NCBI GenBank assembly: GCA_028713415.1
Contig: JAQTOI010000002.1
Span: 16,689-80,688, forward strand
Direction of reading: 5' to 3'
DNA length: 64,000 nucleotides
From: Candidatus Omnitrophota bacterium
GTDB lineage: Bacteria; Omnitrophota; Gorgyraeia; Duberdicusellales; 4484-171
The position numbers were made by a program, and so were the translations under genes. Below are positions 25,022 through 63,807 of this stretch, in pieces. A model generated the notes under the pieces. It was not told where the DNA came from. It worked only from the letters and a program-made list of their open reading frames with translations, and ran no database searches. Each line of letters starts with the position of its first letter. The first letter of the stretch is position 1.

Positions 25022-26122
25022 ATGAAAAAGGTTATCGCCATAACCCTCATCTTAGGATTGATTTTCTGTTTAAATCTACCGCAAAATGCGGATGCAGAAC
25101 TTTCTTTGCGCGTGGCAAGTTACTGGAGAAAATTAAAAGAAAATCTGGTGCAGTGCGAGCTTTGCCCGCGTAAATGCGTTATCGCGCCAAATCAAAGAGG
25201 CTTATGCACCGCGCGCATAAATCGCGGCGGAACTCTCTATACTCTAGCTTACGGAAATCCTGTTTCACTTGCCATTGACCCCATCGAAAAAAAACCTTTC
25301 TTCCATGTTGCTCCAGGAGAACCCATATTTTCCCTGGCGGTGGCAGGCTGCAATATGCGCTGCTTATTCTGTCAGAACTGGCAAATCTCTCAATCAAAGC
25401 CGGATGAAACGGTAAATTACAATATGCCTCCGCAGGCGGTGGTGGATACAGCAATAAAAAATAAATGTAAATTTATCGCTTTTACCTATACGGAGCCGAC
25501 TATTTTTTACGAATATATGCTGGATATCGCAAAAATAGCAAAGGCCAGCGGGCTTAAAAACACGATGCATTCCTGCGGCTACATAAATCCCAAACCTCTG
25601 GAAGAACTGCTTAAATACATGGATGCCGTAAATATTGACCTTAAATCCTTTGACGACAAATTTTATAATAAGATGGCAATGATGGCACAAGTCGGCCCGG
25701 TGCTTGAAACTATTAAAACTATAAAAAAGAACGGCGTATGGCTTGAGCTGACAAATCTGATTATCCCGGGAGAAAACGACTCGCCTGAACAAATACGCCG
25801 GATGTGCCTCTGGATTAAGGAAAATCTGGGTGATGATGTGCCTTTGCATTTTAGCCGGTTTATACCTACGTTTAAGTTGACTAATCTTCCGCCGACACCC
25901 ATTGAGAAACTGGAGGAAGCGCAAAAAATCGCAAAAGAGGCCGGTTTAAAATATGTATATATAGGAAACGTGCCCGGGCACGCCGGAGAGAATACCTATT
26001 GCCCGCATTGCGGAAGAGTTGTAGTTTCGCGCCTGGGCTATGAAATCAGGGAACTGAATATAAAAAACGGTAAGTGCGGCTTTTGCGGAGAAAAAATAGC
26101 CGGCCTCTGGGAAAATGGGTAA
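25022..26122 (+). CDS. Radical SAM enzyme, AmmeMemoRadiSam/PFL-activase-like, with predicted N-terminal signal/anchor
   Basis: 366 aa with CELCPRKC, a radical SAM cluster GCNMRCLFCQNW (Cx3Cx2C), and a C-terminal CPHCG...CGFCG cluster. The N-terminal 25 residues (MKKVIAITLILGLIFCLNLPQNADA) resemble a signal peptide. The alternative start GTG 25112 lacks an RBS. Confidence 0.7.
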   Translation: MKKVIAITLILGLIFCLNLPQNADAELSLRVASYWRKLKENLVQCELCPRKCVIAPNQRGLCTARINRGGTLYTLAYGNPVSLAIDPIEKKPFFHVAPGEPIFSLAVAGCNMRCLFCQNWQISQSKPDETVNYNMPPQAVVDTAIKNKCKFIAFTYTEPTIFYEYMLDIAKIAKASGLKNTMHSCGYINPKPLEELLKYMDAVNIDLKSFDDKFYNKMAMMAQVGPVLETIKTIKKNGVWLELTNLIIPGENDSPEQIRRMCLWIKENLGDDVPLHFSRFIPTFKLTNLPPTPIEKLEEAQKIAKEAGLKYVYIGNVPGHAGENTYCPHCGRVVVSRLGYEIRELNIKNGKCGFCGEKIAGLWENG

Positions 26123-26915: not shown

Positions 26916-29174
26916 ATGAAAAAAACTCTTTTCTTTTCAGTAATCTGCGCCGGGCTTACCGCTATGGCAAGCCAGATTATCTTAGTGCGGGAATTTCTGG
27001 TGCTTTCGGGGGGAGATGAATTATCCATAGGAATAATCCTCGCTTGCTGGCTGATAAATACGGCCTTGGGAAGCATGGCGCTGGGTAATTTTATTCCTAA
27101 AATAAAATCTAAAATTTATTGGCTTTGGTTTTCTTTTCTCTTTCTGGCGGTATACCTGCCGCTGGCAATTTTCCTCTGCCGGGGAGTTAGAGTAGCCCTC
27201 CGGATAAACCCCGGAGAAATTTTGCAGTATCAGGTGCTTGGATTCTGCGCTTTTTTTATCCTGCTTCCTAGCTGTGCGCTTCTTGGCTTTATATTTTCTC
27301 TTGCCTGCAGATTATATGAAGATAATTCGCCTTTAGGCTCAGTAAACATAGCGAAGGTTTACGCTCTTGAGGCTATAGGCTCAATGCTGGGGGGATTATT
27401 GACAAGCTCGGTTTTAATAGGTATGTTCAACAGCTTCGAGGCAATTGCTTTATTGAGCTTGTTAAATATCCTGCTTGGTTTTTTTATCATTTTAGGCTTG
27501 CCTAAAAAAAGGCTGGTAGCTGTAGGCATAAATTCCATTTTTTTTATTATCTGTATATTTTTATTCCTGACAGGTGCCTGGAAGAATTTGGAGACTTATT
27601 CTCTGAAAAGGCAGTGGCCCGGATTTGAAGTCTTAGAAAGCAAGAATACAATTTACGCAAACCTCCTTAGCCTTAAAAGAGGAAATCAGGTCTCTTTTTT
27701 TGAAAACGGGACAAGGCTCTATACAGTTTTTGACAAACAGTTAAGCGAGGAGGCAGTGCACTTCTGCCTTCTGGAACACAAAAACCCCCGCAATATACTT
27801 CTTATCGGCGCAGGCTTTGCGGGTTTATTGGATGAAATATTAAAATATCCTGTAACCTGCGTTGATTACGTAGAGCTTGACCCAGCGCTCGTTACAATGG
27901 CAAAAAAACATCTTCCGCCTCTTTATACTTCCAGCCTCCAAAATACGCTGGTGCATGTGATAAATACTGATGCGCGATTTTTCCTAAAAACTACCCCAAA
28001 AAAATACGATTGCATAATTCTGCATCTGGGCGCGCCTTACAGCGCCCAGATAAACAGGTTCTATACTTATGATTTTTTCAGGCGCCTTAAGCTGAATTTA
28101 AAAAATGAAGGCATATTATCTTTTTACCTTAATGCTTCAGAAAACTATATCAACGCGGAAGGAGCGGATTTCCTGCGCTCTGTTTATAGCACCTTGAAAA
28201 CTGTGTTTAAAGAAGTTAAGGTTATTCCCGGAGAGACGGTATATTTCCTGGCTTCTGATACAAAGGGAGAATTAACTTTAGATTTTAATATACTCATGCA
28301 AAGGGCAAAGGATGCGGGTTTAAATTTGCAATATGTGCGGGAATATTACTTAATCAGCAGATTGAACCCTGACAAAATTAATTATTTAAATTCTATTCTG
28401 GAAAGAAATGTCCCGGTAAGAATTAACCGCGATTTTAAACCTCGCTTGTATTATTACGGAATTATCTCATGGGGCTCCCGTTTTAGAGAATCAATATTTA
28501 CTAAAGTTTTGAAACAGGTAAGTGAAAAAAAGATTTACCTAATTTTCGCTCTTTTTTTATTTGGCATAGCTTTTTTTGGAGCAAGGCAGCCAAGAAACTC
28601 AATTTCAGCCGCATTAATAACTGCCGGGTTTTGCCAGAGCGTATTGCAGATAATCCTGATTTATGCCTTTCAAGTTATTTACGGCTACCTCTTCTATAAA
28701 ATCGGAACTCTATTTGCCTCTTTTATGCTGGGCCTGGGCGTGAGCGCCTGGCGTTTTACTAAAGCAAAAGCGCCTGAACAAAAAACATATTCGCGCCTAT
28801 TAGGCATCCAGCTGGCAGCCGCCGCGCTTTTTTTGATTTTACCGCTGATTTTATCGCGACTGGCTAGTTTGAACCTTGCTTCCATATCCTGGCTTGGCGC
28901 AAACTTATTTTTCCCAGCACTTTCCTTGCTTTCCGGACTCCTGGGCGGCGCCATATTTGCTCAAGCCAACCACATATATCTTTTCCAAGCAGAAAGCGCC
29001 GGGATAGAAAAAACAGCCGCGTTTGCTTATGGCTTAGATTTATTGGGTGCGTGCTTCGGGGCCTTAAGCGTTGTTTTTTTAATCCCGATTATGGGCATTT
29101 TCTCGACTTGCTTTTTACTGGCTAGCCTGAATCTAGTTGTCTTTATTGTGCTGCGTTATGGCAGGAACCGCTAA
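26916..29174 (+). CDS. Polytopic membrane protein with embedded spermidine/spermine-synthase-like (aminopropyltransferase-fold) domain
   Basis: 752 aa with about 7 TM helices, then a soluble domain with RNILLIGAGFAGLLDEI...VELDPALV...DCIILHL (a Rossmann or SpdS-like GxGxG...D motif), then about 6 more TM helices. Confidence 0.65.
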   Translation: MKKTLFFSVICAGLTAMASQIILVREFLVLSGGDELSIGIILACWLINTALGSMALGNFIPKIKSKIYWLWFSFLFLAVYLPLAIFLCRGVRVALRINPGEILQYQVLGFCAFFILLPSCALLGFIFSLACRLYEDNSPLGSVNIAKVYALEAIGSMLGGLLTSSVLIGMFNSFEAIALLSLLNILLGFFIILGLPKKRLVAVGINSIFFIICIFLFLTGAWKNLETYSLKRQWPGFEVLESKNTIYANLLSLKRGNQVSFFENGTRLYTVFDKQLSEEAVHFCLLEHKNPRNILLIGAGFAGLLDEILKYPVTCVDYVELDPALVTMAKKHLPPLYTSSLQNTLVHVINTDARFFLKTTPKKYDCIILHLGAPYSAQINRFYTYDFFRRLKLNLKNEGILSFYLNASENYINAEGADFLRSVYSTLKTVFKEVKVIPGETVYFLASDTKGELTLDFNILMQRAKDAGLNLQYVREYYLISRLNPDKINYLNSILERNVPVRINRDFKPRLYYYGIISWGSRFRESIFTKVLKQVSEKKIYLIFALFLFGIAFFGARQPRNSISAALITAGFCQSVLQIILIYAFQVIYGYLFYKIGTLFASFMLGLGVSAWRFTKAKAPEQKTYSRLLGIQLAAAALFLILPLILSRLASLNLASISWLGANLFFPALSLLSGLLGGAIFAQANHIYLFQAESAGIEKTAAFAYGLDLLGACFGALSVVFLIPIMGIFSTCFLLASLNLVVFIVLRYGRNR

Positions 29175-29245: not shown

Positions 29246-30052
29246 ATGGCTACGATAATTAAATTTCTAAAACGGCCCCACCTTTCAATTTTAATCCTGC
29301 TTACATTTCTGTCTCATTATCCTCAATGCCAGTCGGAAAATATATATTATAAAGACGGTAGAGCAATAAACGTTAGAATAATCTACCGCGATAAAGATAC
29401 TCTCTGGATAAAACAAAGCGTGGGCTCTACGGGAATAGACATCAATACCATCAGCAGAATTGAAAATAACGACGGTTCAATTTCAAAATATGACGTCGCT
29501 TTTCTCACCAAGCAAATACAGGAATTTATAAAACAAAAAAAATATGCCGAGGCGGAAAAACTTTGCGGCACATTATTGGAAACTTCTCCTAATAATGTCG
29601 AAATCCGTTATCTGCGTGGCATGCTAAGCCAGAAGGCGGGCGACACAGAGATGGCAATTGAAGACTATGAATATCTTATAAACCACGATGACGCTGATGA
29701 GAGAATTTTTAATAATCTGGGCGCTATTTATGCCGGGCAAAAACGTTACAAAACGGCTGAAGAATTATTTTATAAGGCCCTGGGCTATAACCAGAATAGA
29801 GCGGAAATAAGGAATAATTTATCTGAACTATTCATGGAGGCGAAAGAATACGCTAAGGCCATAGAAGAATACAACAAGCTGATTACATTGGAACCGGATA
29901 ACGAATCAGCTTTATATAACCTGGGCATTGCATACAAAAATACAGGAGATTTTACTAAAGCAAAAGAGCTCTGGGAAAGAGTTTTAGCCCTGAAGCCCGA
30001 AGACGCAGACGCAAAAAATGCCCTGGAATACCTCTCAAAGCAAACGCAATAA
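29246..30052 (+). CDS. Secreted TPR-repeat protein
   Basis: 268 aa with a signal peptide and several TPR-like repeats (AEAEKLCGTLLETSPNN..., AIEEYNKLITLEPDNESALYNLGIAYKNTGDFTKAKELWERVLALKPED). Confidence 0.65.
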   Translation: MATIIKFLKRPHLSILILLTFLSHYPQCQSENIYYKDGRAINVRIIYRDKDTLWIKQSVGSTGIDINTISRIENNDGSISKYDVAFLTKQIQEFIKQKKYAEAEKLCGTLLETSPNNVEIRYLRGMLSQKAGDTEMAIEDYEYLINHDDADERIFNNLGAIYAGQKRYKTAEELFYKALGYNQNRAEIRNNLSELFMEAKEYAKAIEEYNKLITLEPDNESALYNLGIAYKNTGDFTKAKELWERVLALKPEDADAKNALEYLSKQTQ

Positions 30053-30136: not shown

Positions 30137-31345
30137 ATGCATAAAATTAAAAGGAAAAGCTTCAGTTTACTTGAATTAATCATTGTTTTAGTGGTGGTAG
30201 GGATCTTGGCTGCAACGGCACTTCTTATATATAACGGCACCATAGAATATGCTAAAAGAAATGAAGCAATTCATAATGCGGCTCTTATCAGAGAAGCGGA
30301 ATTTGCTCAAAAAACCCAAAACGGAACCTTCATAGCAGCTGGTAATGCCGAAGAAGTTAACAATCTTTTATCCCTCACTATTGTTCCCAAAGATTATGAA
30401 TATAAAGTGGTTGGAGTAAGCGATGACGATTTTACTATTTTAGCCACAAAAATTGATACTGATGAAATAGTCCTGGCTTTAAATAAAGATGGGGTGCTTC
30501 AGGTAACAGACTCTGGCCAGGGCGGCGACACAGGCGGCGGCACTGGCGGTTCAGGCTCCGATAGTGGTGAGGAGGGCGGTGGTGGTGGCTCTGGCGGAGG
30601 GGGCGGCGGAGGCTCTGGCGGAGGCTCTGGCGGTGGTGACAGCGGTGGCGGCACTGGCGGTGGCGGTGGCGACACTGGCGGTGGGGGCGGCGGCTCTGGT
30701 GGCGGCGGAGGCTCTGGCGGCGGCGATGACGGAGGCGGAGATGACGGAGGCTCTGGCGGTGGGGGCGGCGGTTTTGGTTCTGTTTCTCACTCTGGAGGCG
30801 GTTGGTCCAATATCCTCGCTAGAGGCGGAGAGGCTGGGACAATAGATGATGGCTTACAAAGCGCTTTAAGCCTTCTTGAAAGTTCTACTTCTGCACTATA
30901 TGTTCCAGAATTAATAGAAGATAACCACATTAGCGTGCTGTATCAAACTGCTCCGTCTTATATCGGGGCGTGGTGGATGAGCAGTACAAATACAATATAC
31001 GTTAATACAGACCAGCAGGGCAACCCTACTGCGGCAATCGCAGCCTTAATCGCTCACGAGGCAACGCATGCTGATTATGATTATCACCAGGAATATTGGA
31101 TTAATACCACCATAGAGAGGCATCCGGAGCTAACAAGAGAGCAGCTTAGCGTACCTGATAATTCCGTTAACCAGGAATATGATTGTTTTTGTAATCAGAT
31201 GGCAGCGTGGCAAGAATTGAAACAAACCGCAACAGATGTCAATAATGATGCTTGGTTAGGCATATATAATCAAGGTGAAGATTATATGAAGTCGACCATA
31301 AAAACCCAGTATGCTTCTATCGGAATAATATTACCCAATTATTAG
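30137..31345 (+). CDS. Type IV pilin or pseudopilin-like protein fused to a C-terminal HExxH (DUF4157-like) putative metallopeptidase domain through a Gly/Ser/Asp-rich linker
   Basis: 402 aa. The N-terminus KRKS/FSLLELIIVLVVVGILAA is a prepilin cleavage/methylation motif with E at +5 and Ser instead of Gly at -1. Residues about 125-225 are more than 70% Gly/Ser/Asp. The C-terminal domain is ...NTIYVNTDQQGNPTAAIAALIAHEATHADYDYHQEYW...EYDCFCNQMAAWQEL. Confidence 0.6.
   Translation: MHKIKRKSFSLLELIIVLVVVGILAATALLIYNGTIEYAKRNEAIHNAALIREAEFAQKTQNGTFIAAGNAEEVNNLLSLTIVPKDYEYKVVGVSDDDFTILATKIDTDEIVLALNKDGVLQVTDSGQGGDTGGGTGGSGSDSGEEGGGGGSGGGGGGGSGGGSGGGDSGGGTGGGGGDTGGGGGGSGGGGGSGGGDDGGGDDGGSGGGGGGFGSVSHSGGGWSNILARGGEAGTIDDGLQSALSLLESSTSALYVPELIEDNHISVLYQTAPSYIGAWWMSSTNTIYVNTDQQGNPTAAIAALIAHEATHADYDYHQEYWINTTIERHPELTREQLSVPDNSVNQEYDCFCNQMAAWQELKQTATDVNNDAWLGIYNQGEDYMKSTIKTQYASIGIILPNY
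30525..30790 (+). repeat. Low-complexity coding repeat (GGC/GGT/TCT units encoding a poly-Gly/Ser linker)
   Basis: Reiterated ggcggtggc, tctggcggaggc and gatgacggaggc units. The antisense alanine-rich track ORFs here are artefacts of this repeat. Confidence 0.7.
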
Positions 31346-31358
31346 TCAGGGAGATGGT

Positions 31359-31943
31359 ATGAAATTAAGTTTAAAAAAATATTATTTTTTAATATTAGGA
31401 GCGGTTCTTATGATGAATACTTTTGGCTGTTCCGCTATAAAATTCGAGAAATATTCCAGTAAAGACCCTTTAATAAATATTTCCATGGATTATATCGCAG
31501 GTTGGCGATATAGCGAAACCAGGGGTGCTGATACCAGTTATGCCCAGGTACTTTTCTTTCCCTTTGAAGAAGGCAAAAAAAGTCCAAGAGTGCTTATTGA
31601 CTTAACCGTGAAAGATATTTCAAAAATTAAACTCGAGGCCCCTACTTTAAAGGCGGCGGAAGATGGCTTATTGGCAAAAAGAATGAAATTGAAAGATGCT
31701 AAGATATTGTCTATATCAAAAAATAAAGTTCTCGATGCAGAGGCTACTGTTATAGAGTTATCTTATCTGATGTTGGAAAATACTCTTGATGTTAAATCGA
31801 AATTAATTCCTGTGAAAGAAAAAATTATTATTTCAAAGAAAAATAATAATTTTTATTTTTTAAGATACGAGAGCCCGGCGCAAGAATTCAGCAAATACGA
31901 TTCGGCCTTTATGCGCATCGCGCGGTCAATGAAAATAAAGTAA
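31359..31943 (+). CDS. Hypothetical lipoprotein
   Basis: 194 aa. MKLSLKKYYFLILGAVLMMNTFGCS has a lipobox. No known domain was recognised. Confidence 0.45.
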   Translation: MKLSLKKYYFLILGAVLMMNTFGCSAIKFEKYSSKDPLINISMDYIAGWRYSETRGADTSYAQVLFFPFEEGKKSPRVLIDLTVKDISKIKLEAPTLKAAEDGLLAKRMKLKDAKILSISKNKVLDAEATVIELSYLMLENTLDVKSKLIPVKEKIIISKKNNNFYFLRYESPAQEFSKYDSAFMRIARSMKIK

Positions 31944-32153
31944 GTCGCATATTTAAGCTAAGTCTGCACCAAAACCTCACTCCTTCAGGGGTGGGGTTTT
32001 AAAGTTTCTGGATCAAAGCAATAAAAAATCGAAGTTTTGCAGGTAATTTATACGTGGTAATTTTCTTAAGCCGCCTTGAAGGTGAGAAATAAAGGAGGTT
32101 AAATAAACACCAAAATAAAAGTTTTAATTAGCCTTTTTTTCCTTCTCGTTTCA

Positions 32154-32663
32154 TTGAATACTATTGCTCAAGCAGAAATAGGCAATTTTCAAGGCATAGA
32201 GATAGTCGGCAGCCACGAATTCGTATTGCATGTAGGAAAAGCATTGGGGCTTCTTAACAAAAATGCCTTTTTTGCTTTTAATACCGTTAAAGAGTACGTG
32301 GGCAGGATACAGGAGTCGCCTCGTAGCGGAATGAACGTATACATTAATCCGCCGACATTCGAATTAAGCGCCAAAAGCGCATTTTACTCTCTTACCTGGT
32401 GCGCGGGGATCATTGCTCATGACGCCTACCATTCACAGCAATATTTTTCTTATCAGAAAATTCATGGAGATCCGGTACCTGCTGGTGTCTGGACAGGAAA
32501 AGATGCTGAGATAGAATGCCTCAATTTCCAAAAAGAAGCGATGCGCGCTATAGGCGCTCCGGATAAAGAGATAGACTATGTGGCTTCCGTAGAGCCAACA
32601 TATTATGATGTCAATAAAGATGGCCGATACGATCAAGAAGATTACCTCTTGCGGGACTGGTAA
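32154..32663 (+). CDS. Secreted protein with an HxxxH (HExxH-like, DUF4157-like) domain, paralog of the pilin-fused C-terminal domain
   Basis: ...NVYINPPTFELSAKSAFYSLTWCAGIIAHDAYHSQQYF...EIECLNFQKEAMRAIG aligns by eye with the pilin-fusion region TIYVNTD...ALIAHEATHADYDYHQEYW...EYDCFCNQMAAWQEL. The true start is probably upstream (the in-frame KIKVLISLFFLLVSLNTIAQA signal peptide has no ATG), so the 5' end is uncertain. Confidence 0.5.
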   Translation: MNTIAQAEIGNFQGIEIVGSHEFVLHVGKALGLLNKNAFFAFNTVKEYVGRIQESPRSGMNVYINPPTFELSAKSAFYSLTWCAGIIAHDAYHSQQYFSYQKIHGDPVPAGVWTGKDAEIECLNFQKEAMRAIGAPDKEIDYVASVEPTYYDVNKDGRYDQEDYLLRDW

Positions 32664-57270: not shown

Positions 57271-57660
57271 ATGTCAGAACAGTTAAGCGAAAGACGACAG
57301 TTTGCACGTATACCGGTTGTTTTTGTAGCCACTTATAAAGTGCGCGAACCGGTGAGTTTGCGCATGTTTATCAAAAGTGAAGAAACGCCTGCTACTATGG
57401 TCGATTTAAGCGAGGGTGGCATAGCTATTAACACAAGCTGTGACATTCCTGTCGCAAGCATACTTTTAATAGAATTTACCTTTATAGACATGACAGCTAC
57501 AGCTGATGAACCGATACATAGAATGAAAATAGTGGGCGATGTACGCTATAACGTCTTAAAAGAAAACGGTGTACACAGGCTTGGTATACGCTTTACTGAA
57601 ATCAGTGAAAGCGACAAATACATCATCTCAATGTTCTGCCGTAAAGCCCTAGCGAAATAA
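57271..57660 (+). CDS. PilZ domain protein
   Basis: RRQFARIPVVFVATYKV... (RxxxR) and DLSEGGIAI (DxSxGG) are present. It lies directly upstream of the T2SS/T4P ATPase gene. Confidence 0.6.
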   Translation: MSEQLSERRQFARIPVVFVATYKVREPVSLRMFIKSEETPATMVDLSEGGIAINTSCDIPVASILLIEFTFIDMTATADEPIHRMKIVGDVRYNVLKENGVHRLGIRFTEISESDKYIISMFCRKALAK

Positions 57661-57723
57661 AGTTTAGCGGCTCAAGCTGTTGAGAATATTTAGTTTTAAA
57701 TTTTCGTAAAGTATAATTATTGT

Positions 57724-59436
57724 ATGCCGACAAAAGAAAATCTTCTGGTAGGCAGGATTCTAGTAGAAGAAAACATCATAACTTCCGAACAGCTTGAGGC
57801 GGGGCTCAAAGAGCAAAAGCGCACCGGAGACTTTATTTGCACTACACTGGTAAAACTGGGGTTTGCGCCGCAAGAGAAAGTATTCAGCGTTCTATCTCGC
57901 CAATTAAATATCCCTTATGTAAAATTGAAGGACAAAGAAATCCCTCAAAACGTTATCGAAAAAGTATCCGCTAAGTTCGCAAGCCACTATAAAATCGTCC
58001 CCATAGAGTATCGCGACAATACCCTGGTAATAGCCATGGCAAACCCGCTGGACACCCGCACGCTTGACGATATTAATCTATTATTGGGCATTGAAGTTAA
58101 GGCAGTGCTCTCCAGCGAAGTCGAGATAAACGAAGAACTTCGTAAATATTACGGAGTAGGCGCGGATACTCTGGAACAAATTATGGCGCAGAAAGAATTT
58201 TCCGGGGAAATACAGATGCAGGCTGAAAAAACCGAGGACATAGAAACGCTGGCGGAAGACGCCTCTATTATCAAATTTGTCAACCAGATACTTTCAGAAG
58301 CGGTTAAAGACAGGGCGACTGATATACACATTGAACCTTTCCAGGATGAACTACGCGTGCGCTTTCGTATCGATGGCGTGCTTTATAAAATAAATATACC
58401 CGGGACAATAAGGTATTTCCATCCCGCAATAATCTCGCGAATTAAAGTTATGGCGCAGATGAATATCGCTGAGCACCGCATGCCACAGGATGGACGCATC
58501 AAAATCAAAGTTGCCGAAAGAGAACTTGACCTGCGAATTTCTACACTACCTACGGCATTTGGCGAAGGCGTGCATATGCGCATATTGAGCTCGCATAGCT
58601 TTCTGGAATTAGAAAAACTGGGATTAGCGCAGTGCGATCTTGCTATTATTGAAAATGTCATTAAAAAACCTCACGGCATTATCTTTGTTACCGGGCCCAC
58701 GGGAAGCGGGAAATCCACAACGCTATACGCCTCCCTGGCAAAAATAAATTCCATGGAAACAAAAATAATTACCATAGAGGACCCCATAGAATATCAGTTA
58801 AAAGGCATAAACCAGATGCAGGTTATCCCAAAAATAGGGTTTGATTTTGCCATAGGACTGCGCCACATATTAAGGCACGACCCTGATGTCATAATGGTGG
58901 GTGAGGTCAGGGATTATGAAACCGCTGAAATTGCAATACGTTCTGCACTCACAGGACACTTGGTGTTTTCCACGCTGCATACCAACGACGCTGCCGGGGC
59001 GATAACACGCCTTGTTGATATGGGCGTTGAGCCTTTTTTAGTTTCATCAAGCCTTGAGTGCCTGATTGCGCAGCGGCTTGTGCGGTTAATCTGCCCGAAA
59101 TGTAAAACGGCAATAAGCGGGCACAAAAAAGCTGACATCTTAAAACAGGCTCATGAGGAAAAAATCGAAACTTCCGAAATTGAGTTGTTTGAAGGTAAAG
59201 GGTGCCAGGAATGCCGCTTTACAGGCTACCGCGGCCGGACAGGCATATACGAGATACTGCGTATCAGCGAACCTATAAGAGAAATGATTGTTACCAAGTC
59301 AACCAGCCAGCAAATAAAGCAAAAAGCTATTGCCGAAGGAATGCGCACCCTGCGCCGAGACGGCCTCTGCAAAGTATTAAGGGGGTTGACTACTTTAAGC
59401 GAAGTGATGCGCGTTAGCCAGCAGGAAACAACTTAG
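57724..59436 (+). CDS. Type II secretion/type IV pilus assembly ATPase (GspE/PilB family)
   Basis: 570 aa with an N-terminal T2SE_Nter domain, Walker A GPTGSGKSTTLYA, Asp and His boxes, and a tetracysteine motif (CPKC...CQEC). Confidence 0.8.
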   Translation: MPTKENLLVGRILVEENIITSEQLEAGLKEQKRTGDFICTTLVKLGFAPQEKVFSVLSRQLNIPYVKLKDKEIPQNVIEKVSAKFASHYKIVPIEYRDNTLVIAMANPLDTRTLDDINLLLGIEVKAVLSSEVEINEELRKYYGVGADTLEQIMAQKEFSGEIQMQAEKTEDIETLAEDASIIKFVNQILSEAVKDRATDIHIEPFQDELRVRFRIDGVLYKINIPGTIRYFHPAIISRIKVMAQMNIAEHRMPQDGRIKIKVAERELDLRISTLPTAFGEGVHMRILSSHSFLELEKLGLAQCDLAIIENVIKKPHGIIFVTGPTGSGKSTTLYASLAKINSMETKIITIEDPIEYQLKGINQMQVIPKIGFDFAIGLRHILRHDPDVIMVGEVRDYETAEIAIRSALTGHLVFSTLHTNDAAGAITRLVDMGVEPFLVSSSLECLIAQRLVRLICPKCKTAISGHKKADILKQAHEEKIETSEIELFEGKGCQECRFTGYRGRTGIYEILRISEPIREMIVTKSTSQQIKQKAIAEGMRTLRRDGLCKVLRGLTTLSEVMRVSQQETT

Positions 59437-59474: not shown

Positions 59475-59891
59475 ATGTTACATTTAACTTCCGGCCGCTT
59501 GCGCTTAAGCGTCTTATTTCTCACCAGCATATTAACTTTCTGCTTCTTTTCTCCGCTTGTTTGCCGGCCCACAGAAAACCTTCAGGAATCCGTACAAAGC
59601 AAAATCTGGGATTTTGGCCGGGTAAAAGAAACTAAAATTCTAAAGCACAATTTTATTTTTAAAAATGAAACAGGAAAAATTTTACATATCGTCAATGTCA
59701 GCACCTCCTGCGGCTGCATGGTTTCTAAAGTAAATAAAACAACTCTTCTGCCTCGAGAGACCGCCGTCATCGCGGTTGAGTTTAACCCTGCTAGTTACAG
59801 CGGCAAGATCACTCAATACGTTTACCTTCATACCGATAATATTAAAAACTTACTGATTGAGTTTGCTTTAAGGGCTGAAGTGATGAGTTGA
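59475..59891 (+). CDS. DUF1573 domain protein (secreted)
   Basis: 138 aa with an N-terminal hydrophobic segment. The conserved DUF1573 motifs FxFxNxG (FIFKNETG) and SCGC (VSTSCGCM) are present. Confidence 0.6.
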   Translation: MLHLTSGRLRLSVLFLTSILTFCFFSPLVCRPTENLQESVQSKIWDFGRVKETKILKHNFIFKNETGKILHIVNVSTSCGCMVSKVNKTTLLPRETAVIAVEFNPASYSGKITQYVYLHTDNIKNLLIEFALRAEVMS

Positions 59892-59973: not shown

Positions 59974-62900
59974 GTGCTTTTTCCTCCGGTAAACCAGTTA
60001 AAAAGAGGAGGTTATATTAAAAACATTCCCTGTTTGCGGCTAATTTGCGCGCTTCTTTGCGCAACGCTTGCCTTTAACCCCCTACTCAGCTATGCCCAGC
60101 CAGAAAACTACGCAGCCATTAGTCTTTTCAAATCAGCTCAAGAAGACCAAAAGAACCTGAAATGGCAGGATAGCCTTGCCAAATTTGGGCAGGTTATTGC
60201 TTCTTCTCCAAAAAGTCCTGAGGCACAAAAAGCCTTTATTGAAATAGGTAAATATTATAAATACAACCGGGACTGGCAGAAGGCTCTCCAACAATACGAC
60301 CGGGCGATTAATATTTCCTCCGCTTCCCGCGACGCCCAGGACGCCAAAACCGCAAAAGCCGCTGTCTATTATTTCCGTCAGGATTTCCCGACCGCTTTAG
60401 GAATGTTTCAGGAAGTCTTAGCTCAAACAAAAGACTGGGACCAGATAAACTACTGCTCTTACTGGATTAAGGAAGTAAAACGCAAAATGGATTTTTCCCG
60501 GGCCGATTCATTTGCCTGCGGGCCGCAGGCGCTCAAAATTGTTTTTAATATCCTGGGCTTGCCCGCGAATAATAAAGAAATAGCCGGATTATTCCAAACT
60601 GAAGATAAACAGATTTCGCTTGCCCAATTAACCAAAGCGGCTAAACAAAAAGGGTTAAAGCCGAAAGTCGCCAAACTCAAATCCGCTGATCTTGCAAATG
60701 TAAACACTCCCTTTATCGCCTTAGTGAATCCGGAACATTATGTGGTAGTTACTGATACTGCGGATAACCAAGTGCGCTATATCGACCCCAGCTACCAAAG
60801 CCAAACGCAATCGGCAAGTTTAGAAGAGTTTAATAAAAATTTTAAAGGCTACGCCCTGATCTTCATTGAGGATCAGACCCGCTTGGCAAAAGTAAAAATT
60901 GTTTCGCCTGAAAATAAAGAGTTAAATGAACTAAAAGGCGGTATCTGCTGGTGCTGCCCGCCTTCAGGCTTAGGCGACTGCCCCAATGCTGAAAAAGACG
61001 GAAAAAAGCCCTGTTCGCCGGGTATGCCTTCATGGATGGTCAATACCGTCAATCTTAATCTCATCATCCAAGATATTGATTTTCAATATACCTCGCGCGG
61101 TATGCCTGTTGAGTTCATTCGTACCTACAACGCTGACGATCCCAGAGATGGCGTTTTCGGCCACTCCTGGACTTTTAATTACAATGTCTATTTGGTAGAA
61201 AATCCGGATAAAAGCATAGATATTAGAAGGGGCGACGGCAGGATAGACCACTTCTTCTGGAACGGCAGCCGCTATCAGGCACCTGAAGCTATTTACGATA
61301 CTCTCACTAAAAACGGGGATAACACTTACACTTTAAAGCTAAAGGCTGATAAAACCAGCTATAACTTTAATGCGCAGGGGAGGCTTATCAATATCAAGGA
61401 CAGAAATAATAATACCATCGCCTTTTCTTACGATGCTGAAGGCAAACTTACGCAAATAACCGACCCCAATGGCAAAAATACCGCACTTGCTTACGGGACA
61501 AACAAAAAAGTCTCAAGGCTTACCCTGGCTGACGGCCGCTTTGCCGAGTTTTTCTATGACAGCAATAATAACCTCATCCAGACTAAAGACATGGTGCAGG
61601 CCACCGCCGCATTTACCTATGACAGCGCAAGCTACATAACTGCCATCACCACTCCTCATCAAGGAAAAACCACCATCGAATACGGCACAACCAGCTATGA
61701 AGGCTATTATATTAAATCCATTACCGACGCTTTAGGCAATAAGCGCAGCTACTCTACTTACCAAACCCACACCCAAATACAGATTCTGGACAGTAAAAAC
61801 AACTCTACGCTCTATAAAAATAACTATGACGGTTATACTACCTCAATTACCTCCCCCAGCGGTAACGCAGTAAATTTTGAATATGATACTTTTGGAAACC
61901 GCACTAAAATCATAGATACCTTGGGTAACGCTACCGCCTTAACCTATGACGCAAACGGCGGCATTACCTCAATAACCGACGCCTTAAATAACAAGGTTAT
62001 TCTTGATTATGATGCCAATGATAACCTGATAAAAGCAACCGATCCTAAAGGCAACATCATCAATTTCACCTACGATACAAAAAGTAACCTGCTTTCCTTA
62101 AAAGACCCGGACAGCCAGACTACATCTTTTACTTATAATTCTTTCGGCCAACTGCAAAGATTAACCGACGCAAAAAATGGGATCACTGATTTTGCTTACG
62201 ATGCAAGCGGTAACCTGATTAAAATGACCAACCCCTTAGGTAAGATCAGTAATTACCTCTGTGATACTCTAGGCAGACTAACCAAGCTCACCGATCCCAA
62301 AGGCCAGGCGTTTACCTATATTTATGACGGGGTTGATCATTTGACTAAAGTAACCTATCCGGATTCAGGCACAATAACCTATACTTATAACTGCTGCAAC
62401 CTTAATCAGGTGGAGGATAAAAACGGCACGTTGAAATTTACTTACGATGCTCTTGGCAGGCTGAAATCTTTTACCAATTATGATAACAAGATAATTTCCT
62501 ACGATTATGATGGCGAAGACAATTTGATCAGCCTTACTTATCCTGACACAAAAAAAGTAAATTACCAATACGATAAAGACAATCGCCTCACAAAAGTTAT
62601 TGACTGGCTCAATAATATTACCACCTATAGTTATGATTCGCGGGGAAATTTAGCCTTTAGCCAGTCGCCGGCCTTGCTCAGCGTATATAAATACGATGCG
62701 CTTAACCGCTTGACTAAACTTCTTAATTATAACTCTAATACCATGACGATCAGCTCTGGTTTTGAATTTACTTTAAATGAGCTCTCTAACCGCGCTAAAA
62801 TCAAACGCTACCTTCCTTTGAGCGCACCCACTTTTGCTCTTTCGGGAAGCGCCTACTCCTACAACTCCGACAACCAGCTTACTTCTGCCACCGGAAAAAC

Positions 62901-63807
62901 ATTTACTTATGATGATAACGGCAACTTAATCGGCATAGCGCAAAGCGCAGGCAATATCGGCTTTAGCTATGATTATGACAACCAACTTACACAATACACG
63001 CAGGGTACAACAACTCTAACTTACCAGTATGACGCACTTGGTAACCGCATCAAGAAAACCTCTGGCTCTACAGTAACCAAGTATATCGTTGACCCCAACA
63101 GAGGATTACCCTCTGTGCTCTGTGAAACCAACTCCTCCGGCGCTATCACTGCTTACTATGTCTATGGTTTAGGGTTAATCTCCAAGATAGAGGGAAGCAA
63201 TGCCTATTACTACCAATACGATGGGATAGGTTCAACGGCAGCGATAACCGATAAGAACGGGGTGATAAAGAACAAATACGCCTACGATGACTTTGGAAAC
63301 TTGGCTACGAATTCTACGGAAACAATCGCAAATCCATTCAAATATATCGGGCGGCATGGTGTTGTGACTGATACAAATGATCTTTTTTATATGCGCGCAC
63401 GTTATTACATGCCAAGTATGGGAAGATTTGTAAATAAGGATCCAATTGGATTGGCAGGTGGATTGAATTTATATGGGTATGTCAGCAATAACGCTATAAA
63501 CATAGTTGACCCAAACGGTCTTTTCGATACAAGCACAGTTCCCATTCAGATTATCAATTCCGATTTAGTCATGCCCCCCATGTTCAAATCGTCACTACCT
63601 CTTTACTCATCTTCTTATTATTCTTCGTCGAAAGGTTACAAAAGGATAAGATGCGATTTAATTGATATACCCACCATTAAAGGAGATAAAAAAATTTGTA
63701 AATACAGGTGTGTGGATGAACATGGGAACTTCATCTCAATCTGGTATCATATCATATTAGCGGATTCTAATTGTGATTCGGTATTTTTTAAAATAGTGCC
63801 AAAATAG
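59974..63807 (+). CDS. RHS/YD-repeat polymorphic toxin with N-terminal peptidase-C39-like domain and novel C-terminal domain
   Basis: 1277 aa with a signal peptide, a TPR-like region, a Cys/His papain-like block (CGPQALKIVFNILGL...NPEHYVVVTD), about 20 YD repeats, an RHS core (YYQYDGIGSTAAITD...RARYYMPSMGRFVNKDPIGLAGGLNLYGYVSNNAINIVDPNGL), and then an unrelated 95-aa C-terminal tail. The 5' end is uncertain (see promoter feature). Confidence 0.8.
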   Translation: MLFPPVNQLKRGGYIKNIPCLRLICALLCATLAFNPLLSYAQPENYAAISLFKSAQEDQKNLKWQDSLAKFGQVIASSPKSPEAQKAFIEIGKYYKYNRDWQKALQQYDRAINISSASRDAQDAKTAKAAVYYFRQDFPTALGMFQEVLAQTKDWDQINYCSYWIKEVKRKMDFSRADSFACGPQALKIVFNILGLPANNKEIAGLFQTEDKQISLAQLTKAAKQKGLKPKVAKLKSADLANVNTPFIALVNPEHYVVVTDTADNQVRYIDPSYQSQTQSASLEEFNKNFKGYALIFIEDQTRLAKVKIVSPENKELNELKGGICWCCPPSGLGDCPNAEKDGKKPCSPGMPSWMVNTVNLNLIIQDIDFQYTSRGMPVEFIRTYNADDPRDGVFGHSWTFNYNVYLVENPDKSIDIRRGDGRIDHFFWNGSRYQAPEAIYDTLTKNGDNTYTLKLKADKTSYNFNAQGRLINIKDRNNNTIAFSYDAEGKLTQITDPNGKNTALAYGTNKKVSRLTLADGRFAEFFYDSNNNLIQTKDMVQATAAFTYDSASYITAITTPHQGKTTIEYGTTSYEGYYIKSITDALGNKRSYSTYQTHTQIQILDSKNNSTLYKNNYDGYTTSITSPSGNAVNFEYDTFGNRTKIIDTLGNATALTYDANGGITSITDALNNKVILDYDANDNLIKATDPKGNIINFTYDTKSNLLSLKDPDSQTTSFTYNSFGQLQRLTDAKNGITDFAYDASGNLIKMTNPLGKISNYLCDTLGRLTKLTDPKGQAFTYIYDGVDHLTKVTYPDSGTITYTYNCCNLNQVEDKNGTLKFTYDALGRLKSFTNYDNKIISYDYDGEDNLISLTYPDTKKVNYQYDKDNRLTKVIDWLNNITTYSYDSRGNLAFSQSPALLSVYKYDALNRLTKLLNYNSNTMTISSGFEFTLNELSNRAKIKRYLPLSAPTFALSGSAYSYNSDNQLTSATGKTFTYDDNGNLIGIAQSAGNIGFSYDYDNQLTQYTQGTTTLTYQYDALGNRIKKTSGSTVTKYIVDPNRGLPSVLCETNSSGAITAYYVYGLGLISKIEGSNAYYYQYDGIGSTAAITDKNGVIKNKYAYDDFGNLATNSTETIANPFKYIGRHGVVTDTNDLFYMRARYYMPSMGRFVNKDPIGLAGGLNLYGYVSNNAINIVDPNGLFDTSTVPIQIINSDLVMPPMFKSSLPLYSSSYYSSSKGYKRIRCDLIDIPTIKGDKKICKYRCVDEHGNFISIWYHIILADSNCDSVFFKIVPK

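Follow-up and report, generated by a model that had tools for sequence, protein, structure and literature searches.

The window analysed here is a stretch of 64,000 nucleotides from a Candidatus Omnitrophota bacterium (assembly GCA_028713415.1, contig JAQTOI010000002.1, positions 16,689 to 80,688 of the forward strand). It encodes a modular type IV pilin-like protein in which a pilin module is joined through a long glycine-rich linker to a C-terminal zincin-like domain, a predicted metallopeptidase. A gene for a PsbP-like lipoprotein follows, and further downstream lies a second open reading frame (ORF) with a zincin-like fold (Table 1). An earlier note, made from the letters of the sequence alone, had described the pilin-like gene and the second ORF as a pilin-tethered head and its secreted paralog in one operon. 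The linked gene, which that note overlooked, is the lipoprotein gene between the two ORFs.

Table 1. Features of the pilin-zincin locus, in positions of the window
Feature	Position	Strand	Remarks
Secreted TPR protein, 268 residues	29246..30052	+	Many TPR Pfam matches; upstream of the pilin gene
Modular type IV pilin-like protein, 402 residues	30137..31345	+	Leader, pilin module, Gly linker, zincin domain
Basic leader peptide MHKIKRKS	30137..30160	+	Precedes 30161; predicted prepilin-peptidase site after Ser8; N_methyl match at residues 5-29
Pilin module, residues 9-125	30161..30511	+	Small head after the hydrophobic alpha1-N, which has Glu at +5
Gly/Ser/Asp-rich flexible linker, residues 126-226	30512..30814	+	Composition and tandem repeats
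Compact zincin-like (minigluzincin/DUF6782-like) domain	30815..31342	+	Ends LPNY-COOH
HEATH, residues 307-311 (H307, E308, H311)	31055..31069	+	Predicted to bind the metal and act as catalytic base; on domain-model helix 79-97
QEY (Q346, E347, Y348)	31172..31180	+	Third metal ligand predicted to be E347; on model helix 125-142
PsbP-like lipoprotein, 194 residues, lipobox TFGC, Cys24	31359..31943	+	Conserved partner of the zincin domain
Hairpin with a 13-bp stem, then UUUUAAAGUUU	31971..32000	+	Probable intrinsic terminator of the pilin-lipoprotein unit
Secreted protein of an orphan family, zincin-like fold, HDAYH at 32418-32432	32103..32663	+	Outside the pilin-lipoprotein module

A pilin-like protein with a zincin domain

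The protein begins with MHKIKRKS, followed after the predicted cleavage site by FSLLELIIVLVVVGILAA. Pfam N_methyl (PF07963) scores this N-terminus at 24.9 bits against a cut-off of 21.2 (E 1.4e-5) and TIGR02532 at 16.4, barely above the curated cut-off of 16.3, in agreement with the earlier reading of a prepilin N-terminus with Glu at +5 and Ser at -1. The hydrophobic segment FSLLELIIVLVVVGILAATALL, with its Glu at +5, is of the kind found in type IV pilins (about 20-25 hydrophobic residues), and a weak N-terminal likeness to GspG/GspH stays far under the curated cut-offs. According to a review, pilin leaders end in Gly or Ala (PMC10191384), whereas this one ends in Ser8. Among the family representatives, 32 have Gly at -1, 15 have Ala and 5 have Ser. 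We use the term pilin-like because the leader of this protein ends in Ser, the family as a whole being canonical. No other pilin-like N-terminus was found across the 64 kb.

The linker that the earlier note had recognised as a Gly-rich tether of the HExxH domain, about 100 residues long, comprises 101 residues, 64% of them Gly and 93% G/S/D/T/E. Its DNA, with imperfect short tandem repeats, has a GC content of 72% compared to 40% in the rest of the gene. Of the 86 long family representatives, 61 have a linker of 30 residues or more. In an independent assembly of the same organism the break falls within the linker DNA, and for this reason the full-length protein is missing from the protein database. 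Pilin module, linker and a further C-terminal domain (residues about 236-402) of a kind that is not specific to pili together give the build of a modular pilin.

AlphaFold2 on an alignment of seven sequences gave a confident model of the C-terminal part (predicted local distance difference test, pLDDT, 88.5; predicted template modelling score, pTM, 0.85) that is ordered from residue about 236, and the folded domain is thus about 170 residues long instead of the about 120 first estimated. Two helices and a three-stranded sheet are followed by the long helix with HExxH, a second long helix with QEY and two more helices. The HExxH motif accordingly sits on an active-site helix preceded by a mixed beta-sheet, which is the arrangement of zincins, and an invariant Glu lies on the next long helix; both the helical position of the motif and the zincin-like fold, on which fold searches agree, had been expected beforehand. 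In an alignment of 27 family sequences the residues H88, E89, H92, S124, Q127, E128, G161 and Tyr183 of the domain (307, 308, 311, 343, 346, 347, 380 and 402 of the full-length protein) are invariant, and within QEY the Q and E are invariant and the Y nearly so. In gluzincins one helix holds two His and the catalytic Glu, and the following helix a Glu ligand. The domain would conform to this pattern with E347 as the putative ligand, and it may bind zinc and be an active peptidase.

Compact zincins such as the minigluzincins came out of the fold searches. Foldseek returned selecase, abylysin and jannalysin at a probability of 0.97-0.99, beside ImmA/IrrE-like and ArdC protease domains, and the profile of the 27-sequence family matches selecase with E 3.5e-5 from sequence alone, so that similarity is found both in fold and, significantly, in sequence profile. 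The minigluzincins (selecase MJ1213, projannalysin and proabylysin; PDB 4qhf, 4jix and 4jiu) share with the domain the helices, the three-stranded sheet and the HExxH helix, and the selecase profile match covers the sheet and the active-site helix; in Foldseek the probability is 0.99. They are, however, soluble archaeal proteins and not pilin fusions, they have about 110 residues compared to about 170 here, the TM-scores are only 0.3-0.5, and the C-terminal half of our domain (the QEY helix, QGE and LPEY-COOH) is without counterpart in the alignment.

Searches of PDB and Pfam with the C-terminal domain as a single sequence gave nothing usable. With the family members, the Pfam domain DUF6782 (PF20573, 'putative metallopeptidase') was matched by 6 of the 27 (best E 1.3e-6), SprT-like and M48 by fewer than six, and eCIS_core/DUF4157 by two only. 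The DUF6782 profile has 241 positions, of which only about 22-143 align, and most pilin-fused members remain under its gathering threshold of 27 bits. The domain of the window itself gave no DUF6782 match at E up to 1, whereas two relatives from Chloroflexota (L043 and L040) pass with 33.3 and 28.3 bits. The domain is related to DUF6782 without formal membership. The literature search found no paper that mentions DUF6782.

The label 'DUF4157-like', given to the domain at first, did not hold. PF13699 reaches 13-15 bits (13.1-14.7) against a cut-off of 22, and the HExxHxxQ signature of DUF4157 is absent, as the motif is HEATHADY, with no Gln. The likeness to the DUF4157, eCIS_core and PVC-metallopeptidase group consists of the zincin-like HExxH and a weak local match at the active-site helix (E 0.036-0.11), and the locus differs also in having no contractile-injection-system context. 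The nearest families are instead the minigluzincins and DUF6782.

Nearly all members of the zincin family end in LPEY-COOH (LPNY in our protein, 31331-31342) with an invariant final Tyr, and the versions in Chloroflexota carry the same end with one extra Ala after it. This tail could be autoinhibitory, or it could be a docking peptide, for example for the TPR protein encoded upstream.

The PsbP-like partner and the spread of the family

The lipoprotein gene begins 13 nucleotides past the pilin stop codon. Among 20 homologs of the lipoprotein, Pfam PsbP was matched by 9 and PsbP_2 by 8 (best E 2.9e-10), and there were also matches to LpqN and DcrB; the lipoprotein of the window itself reaches 16.4 bits with PsbP (E 0.0096) against a cut-off of 23.5. 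In 24 of 26 genome loci, and in 23 of the 25 metagenome loci with enough sequence, the next gene downstream is a PsbP-like homolog in the same orientation, with gaps of 0-30 nucleotides; the contig L002, which is truncated N-terminally, shows the same arrangement. A small cognate gene directly downstream is also a mark of polymorphic toxin systems. In four loci (L017, L043, L053 and L055) the zincin gene and the PsbP-like gene are doubled as a unit, in tandem or nearby.

In Chloroflexota and Anaerolineae the pair is found without the pilin, the zincin standing alone or after a helical region of about 190 residues, and neither protein has a signal peptide. At one such locus (L040) a WXG100 gene (E 5e-9) is followed by the gene of the zincin protein, which has DUF6782 above threshold, and by the PsbP-like gene; a gene for an FtsK/SpoIIIE ATPase of 1096 residues lies about 1.1 kb past the pair. 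With its WXG100 and FtsK/EssC-type genes the setting is like that of a type VII secretion system (T7SS); in the N-terminal helical region Pfam found no LXG or other toxin-trafficking domain. The conserved core is thus the zincin with its PsbP-like partner. As predicted from signal peptides and lipobox, the partner is found in the compartment of the zincin within the producer, the cytoplasm in Chloroflexota and the periplasm in Omnitrophota, which argues for direct binding in the producing cell. The lipoprotein would then bind the zincin as an inhibitor, as a pro-domain in trans or as a chaperone.

The same architecture as in the window, the search for which had been proposed as a check, is widespread. 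An exhaustive profile search gave 155 clusters at 50% identity, most of 360-440 residues and with the zincin domain C-terminal, and a scan of GTDB species representatives gave 42 loci in 42 species, mainly of Omnitrophota but including Ratteibacteria and Chloroflexota. Both searches were required, since a word-indexed homolog search returned six relatives of the domain and one of the pilin module. In Omnitrophota the genes are of a uniform build of pilin N-terminus, small pilin module, Gly/Ser linker and zincin domain, and their pilin module is itself conserved, the mean column identity within the family being 45-55%. Metagenomes were scanned for the pilin module with a closer alignment (A6), which replaced a broad one (A5) that was too diverse. 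All 27 complete ORFs found in this way end in the zincin domain, and therefore the pilin module is dedicated to the zincin domain and not shuffled among C-terminal domains. The pilin-zincin genes are a conserved gene family that is undescribed in the literature searched.

A distant C-terminal zincin with HEATHA was also seen in signal-peptide proteins of 460-520 residues in Chloroflexia (L030, L032, L035, L036, L038 and L044). These proteins are without LPEY, and no PsbP-like neighbour and no Pfam match was detected for them.

The second zincin-like ORF and the surrounding genes

For the second ORF, TTG at 32154 is the sole canonical start codon. The signal peptide claimed for its product is indeed encoded, but upstream of that codon (32103-32156), and its use needs an ATA start at 32103, which follows an in-frame TAA at 32100 and stands 4 nucleotides past GGAGG. 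From this start the protein would read MNTKIKVLISLFFLLVSLNTIAQA and, after cleavage, EIG. The region 32103-32156 is identical in a second assembly (L045), and the ORF is 99% identical to the NCBI protein PHQ96_00670 of 'Candidatus Omnitrophica bacterium'. The family has 16 detectable relatives, for which Pfam and PDB sequence searches gave no meaningful match, and it is characterised by the motifs SGM.AY..PPT, YSLTWCAG.IAHDAYHSKLY, AE..C..Q and a C-terminal R-x-W. Its model, of very high confidence (pLDDT 93.4), is zincin-like, with HDAYH and a near-invariant Glu135 on helices equivalent to those of the pilin-linked domain.

A visible homology of the two domains had been proposed. BLASTP found no similarity between the two ORFs, and hhalign comparison of the profiles of the two families gave a weak relation (probability 45-60%, P 2e-4 to 9e-5), in which HEATH is aligned on HDAYH and QEY..F.NQ on AE..C..Q; the proposed pairing of TIYVN with NVYIN is out of this register. 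Similarly, HDxxH had been taken as a degenerate motif, whereas its Asp is nearly invariant in the second family, and because of this conservation HDxxH is a family trait and not the result of decay. The relation of the two domains is a distant kinship within a superfamily and not recent paralogy. The C-terminus of the second ORF (32580-32663) carries a dockerin/EF-hand-like loop, DVNKDGRYDQEDY (Pfam Dockerin_1, E 0.013), that is common to some family members.

It is also doubtful that the second ORF belongs to the same operon. The gap of 160 nucleotides in front of it holds the hairpin given in Table 1, which is followed by a U-rich tract (z -2.88; 1 of 200 shuffled sequences folds equally well), and a scan for consensus terminators did not pick it up. 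The second family was absent from all 42 genome and 30 metagenome loci that carry the pilin-zincin gene, and elsewhere its members occupy unrelated neighbourhoods. In the closest relative of the window (L004, with a glutaminyl-tRNA synthetase, GlnRS, 76% identical) the TPR, pilin-zincin, lipoprotein and GlnRS genes follow each other with nothing between. The second ORF is an unrelated bystander from the wider zincin-like fold class, placed beside the pair by chance, and what had been called a secreted paralog comes from a different, orphan family.

Of the co-directional neighbours named in the earlier note, only the TPR gene is conserved, a homolog being found directly upstream of the pilin-zincin gene in 14 related loci. 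A PilW/PilF pilotin identity was rejected for the TPR protein, as PilW gave 59.8 bits against a cut-off of 154 and NCBIfam gave only generic TPR matches. The small N-terminal beta-domain of this protein (29246-29480) matches NCBIfam Lepto_7_Nterm (E 4.4e-5) and resembles the N-terminal extension of two members of the second-ORF family (P0010 and P0011; BLASTP E 5e-4 over 32 residues), and the domain may be an envelope-targeting module that these proteins share.

A functional tie to the radical SAM, DsbD_2 and spermidine-synthase-like genes, listed in the earlier note as part of the co-directional run, was rejected, as these are not conserved beside the pilin gene. The radical SAM genes found upstream in other loci, beside a pseudouridine synthase gene, are distant superfamily relatives only. 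The radical SAM enzyme of the window (25022-26122) is of the AmmeMemoRadiSam type (TIGR04337, E 1.9e-119, aligned from residue 33); its hydrophobic, signal-peptide-like N-terminus, MKKVIAITLILGLIFCLNLPQNADA, is odd for a cytoplasmic Fe-S enzyme, and its start codon may be miscalled. The protein encoded at 26916-29174 is a membrane protein of 752 residues, the middle part of which is a spermidine-synthase domain (NCBIfam fused MFS/spermidine synthase, 46.9 bits against a cut-off of 40), and distant copies of it are found downstream of the cassette in three loci (L010, L013 and L014).

The PilZ gene and the GspE/PilB-type ATPase gene reported at 57.3-59.4 kb are present, the ATPase being of the MshEN/T2SSE kind and lying at 57.7-59.4 kb. 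The ORFs scanned between 42 and 57.2 kb are housekeeping genes, and no prepilin peptidase was identified among the window ORFs scanned, the ORFs of 1-24 kb lying outside the scan. The PilZ and ATPase genes (57271-59436) and a gene for a DUF1573 protein (59475-59891) are directly followed by a gene (59974-63807) for a protein of 1277 residues with RHS repeats, Peptidase_C39 and DUF6531. This may be a toxin-type locus next to the only pilus-type ATPase of the window.

Possible roles of the pilin-zincin pair

Modular type IV pilins with grafted modules are established, for example PilB and PilC of Streptococcus sanguinis, which carry a vWA and a lectin module, respectively (Raynaud et al. 2021; PMC8179133). 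The same authors list InterPro pilin architectures with predicted peptidase modules of S74 and M26 and warn that unannotated modules are undercounted (PMC8179133). In contrast to the published cases, the protein described here carries as its module a minigluzincin/DUF6782-like zincin that is unannotated and, in the protein of the window, missed by Pfam; the linker is about 100 residues of nearly pure Gly/Ser, and theirs are short; and there is a dedicated PsbP-like partner gene, in an Omnitrophota lineage. Four features are new in the literature searched: the DUF6782/minigluzincin-like module on a pilin, its Gly tether of about 100 residues, the obligatory partner of the PsbP-like kind and the tie to a cassette of T7SS type in a different phylum. 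In the same literature no enzyme-bearing pilin with experimental characterisation was reported.

The explanation that we favour, with slightly better than even confidence, is that the pilin-like protein carries a compact HExxH+Glu metallopeptidase on its long linker, is co-transcribed with a lipoprotein that binds it as a cognate partner, and is displayed on a filament. In this scheme the class III signal peptide would insert the protein into the inner membrane, and the peptidase domain would fold in the periplasm, where the lipoprotein would bind it and hold it inactive or stable, as an inhibitor or a chaperone. After processing by a prepilin peptidase the pilin module would enter a type IV filament, probably as a low-abundance (minor) or tip subunit, and the filament would take the tethered peptidase out of the cell to cleave proteins on the surface of a host, prey or substrate.

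Several points weigh against this explanation. The Ser at -1 breaks the Gly/Ala rule, which makes the protein an atypical member whose processing is a prediction, and the neighbourhood of the pilin-zincin gene, in the window as in the 42 loci, holds no pilin cluster, no prepilin peptidase gene and no assembly genes. The domain of the window stays under every Pfam threshold, and catalysis, metal binding, the ligand role of E347 and the binding of the partner are all things that we infer. In addition, PsbP-like proteins encoded next to type VI secretion system (T6SS) toxins have been proposed to be adaptors and not inhibitors (PMC3482391).

The main rival is a leashed periplasmic protease, in which the pilin-like N-terminus, cleaved or not, is an inner-membrane anchor that never polymerises, the lipoprotein regulates the peptidase, and the long linker lets it reach periplasmic, peptidoglycan-associated or outer-membrane substrates. 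We consider it rather unlikely, although the atypical residue at -1 (Thr in the closest relative), the orphan position of the gene, distant from pilus genes in all loci examined, and the periplasmic location of the partner fit it well, and the conserved, housekeeping-like synteny with TPR, GlnRS and pseudouridine synthase genes suggests a core envelope function. However, in most family members the residue at -1 is the usual Gly or Ala, the Glu at +5 is present and the pilin head is conserved, all of which a mere anchor would not need, and the non-pilin homologs stand in an export context (WXG100/EssC-type), which suggests that the domain acts outside its producer. A further reading takes the pair as an effector-inhibitor cassette, exported by a T7SS-like route in Chloroflexota and grafted on a pilin in Omnitrophota, where the extending pilus would present active protease to the surface of host or prey; such a reading is in our opinion unlikely. 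A contact-dependent antibacterial toxin with its immunity protein, a cassette of the polymorphic-toxin type delivered by a type IV filament in Omnitrophota or by a T7SS-like route in Chloroflexota, is quite unlikely. Zincin toxin domains are known in polymorphic toxins, as are PsbP/MOG1-like (DUF1795/Eag-type) genes beside T6SS toxins (Zhang et al. 2012; PMC3482391), and the present genes resemble these in having a small C-terminal HExxH domain on an export-related N-terminal module, with a small partner gene adjoining. That the partner always lies downstream, where immunity genes usually sit, sets the present genes apart from these. The gene order, with the translationally coupled partner directly after the putative toxin, fits a toxin. 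The tandem duplication of the cassette in some loci and the WXG100 and FtsK/EssC-type genes beside the Chloroflexota version also speak for a toxin. On the other hand, C-terminal polymorphism was looked for and not found, all 27 ORFs with the pilin module sharing the zincin domain; no LXG or other Pfam toxin-trafficking domain was detected; and a partner whose location switches between cytoplasm and periplasm from one phylum to the other is better explained if it shields the producer until export than if it guards one fixed site of action in a target cell. The words pilin and pilus have 0 occurrences in the survey of polymorphic toxins (PMC3482391), and the literature search found no relevant paper that combines polymorphic toxins, pilins and metallopeptidases.

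The remaining two alternatives concern the nature of the domain and its relation to the second ORF. A ChlH/PflC-type oxygenase dependent on alpha-ketoglutarate and Fe(II), in place of a hydrolase, is a fold-level possibility for the HExxH domain, as similarity to 8s5f was found at the level of fold only, and we hold it to be very improbable. Neither ORF matched the alphaKG-HExxH family in NCBIfam (IPR026337, which we take to be TIGR04267) at E up to 1, there is no RiPP (ribosomally synthesised and post-translationally modified peptide) precursor and no radical SAM fusion, the sequence-profile matches go to peptidases, and the domain is exported to where alpha-ketoglutarate is unlikely to be found. 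The model of the earlier note, in which pilin head and second ORF are paralogs that cooperate in one operon, is largely refuted because the second family does not co-occur with the pilin-zincin gene in the related loci, and it seems to us almost untenable. The two genes are 0.8 kb apart on the same strand, both proteins are zincin-like and place H[ED]xxH and a Glu further downstream on equivalent helices, and hhalign relates them with P about 1e-4; but BLASTP similarity is lacking, a terminator hairpin stands between the genes, the second family is missing from all 72 related loci and has unrelated contexts elsewhere, and the closest relative has no second gene at the same position.

Type IV pili are viewed as adhesive and motile fibres, and enzyme-bearing pilins have so far only been predicted, from domain databases. 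The pilin-zincin proteins form a large conserved family that escapes Pfam. With an active protease displayed on a pilus, the known roles of type IV filaments would be extended, and DUF6782-like domains and a bacterial family of PsbP-like proteins would receive their first function. Omnitrophota are a widespread uncultured phylum suspected of parasitism or predation, and the pilin-zincin protein would be a concrete candidate for their host-interaction machinery. Should the pair in addition be an effector with its inhibitor, type IV pili would be a trafficking route for enzymatic effectors, and there would be a molecular handle on how ultra-small Omnitrophota attack other cells.

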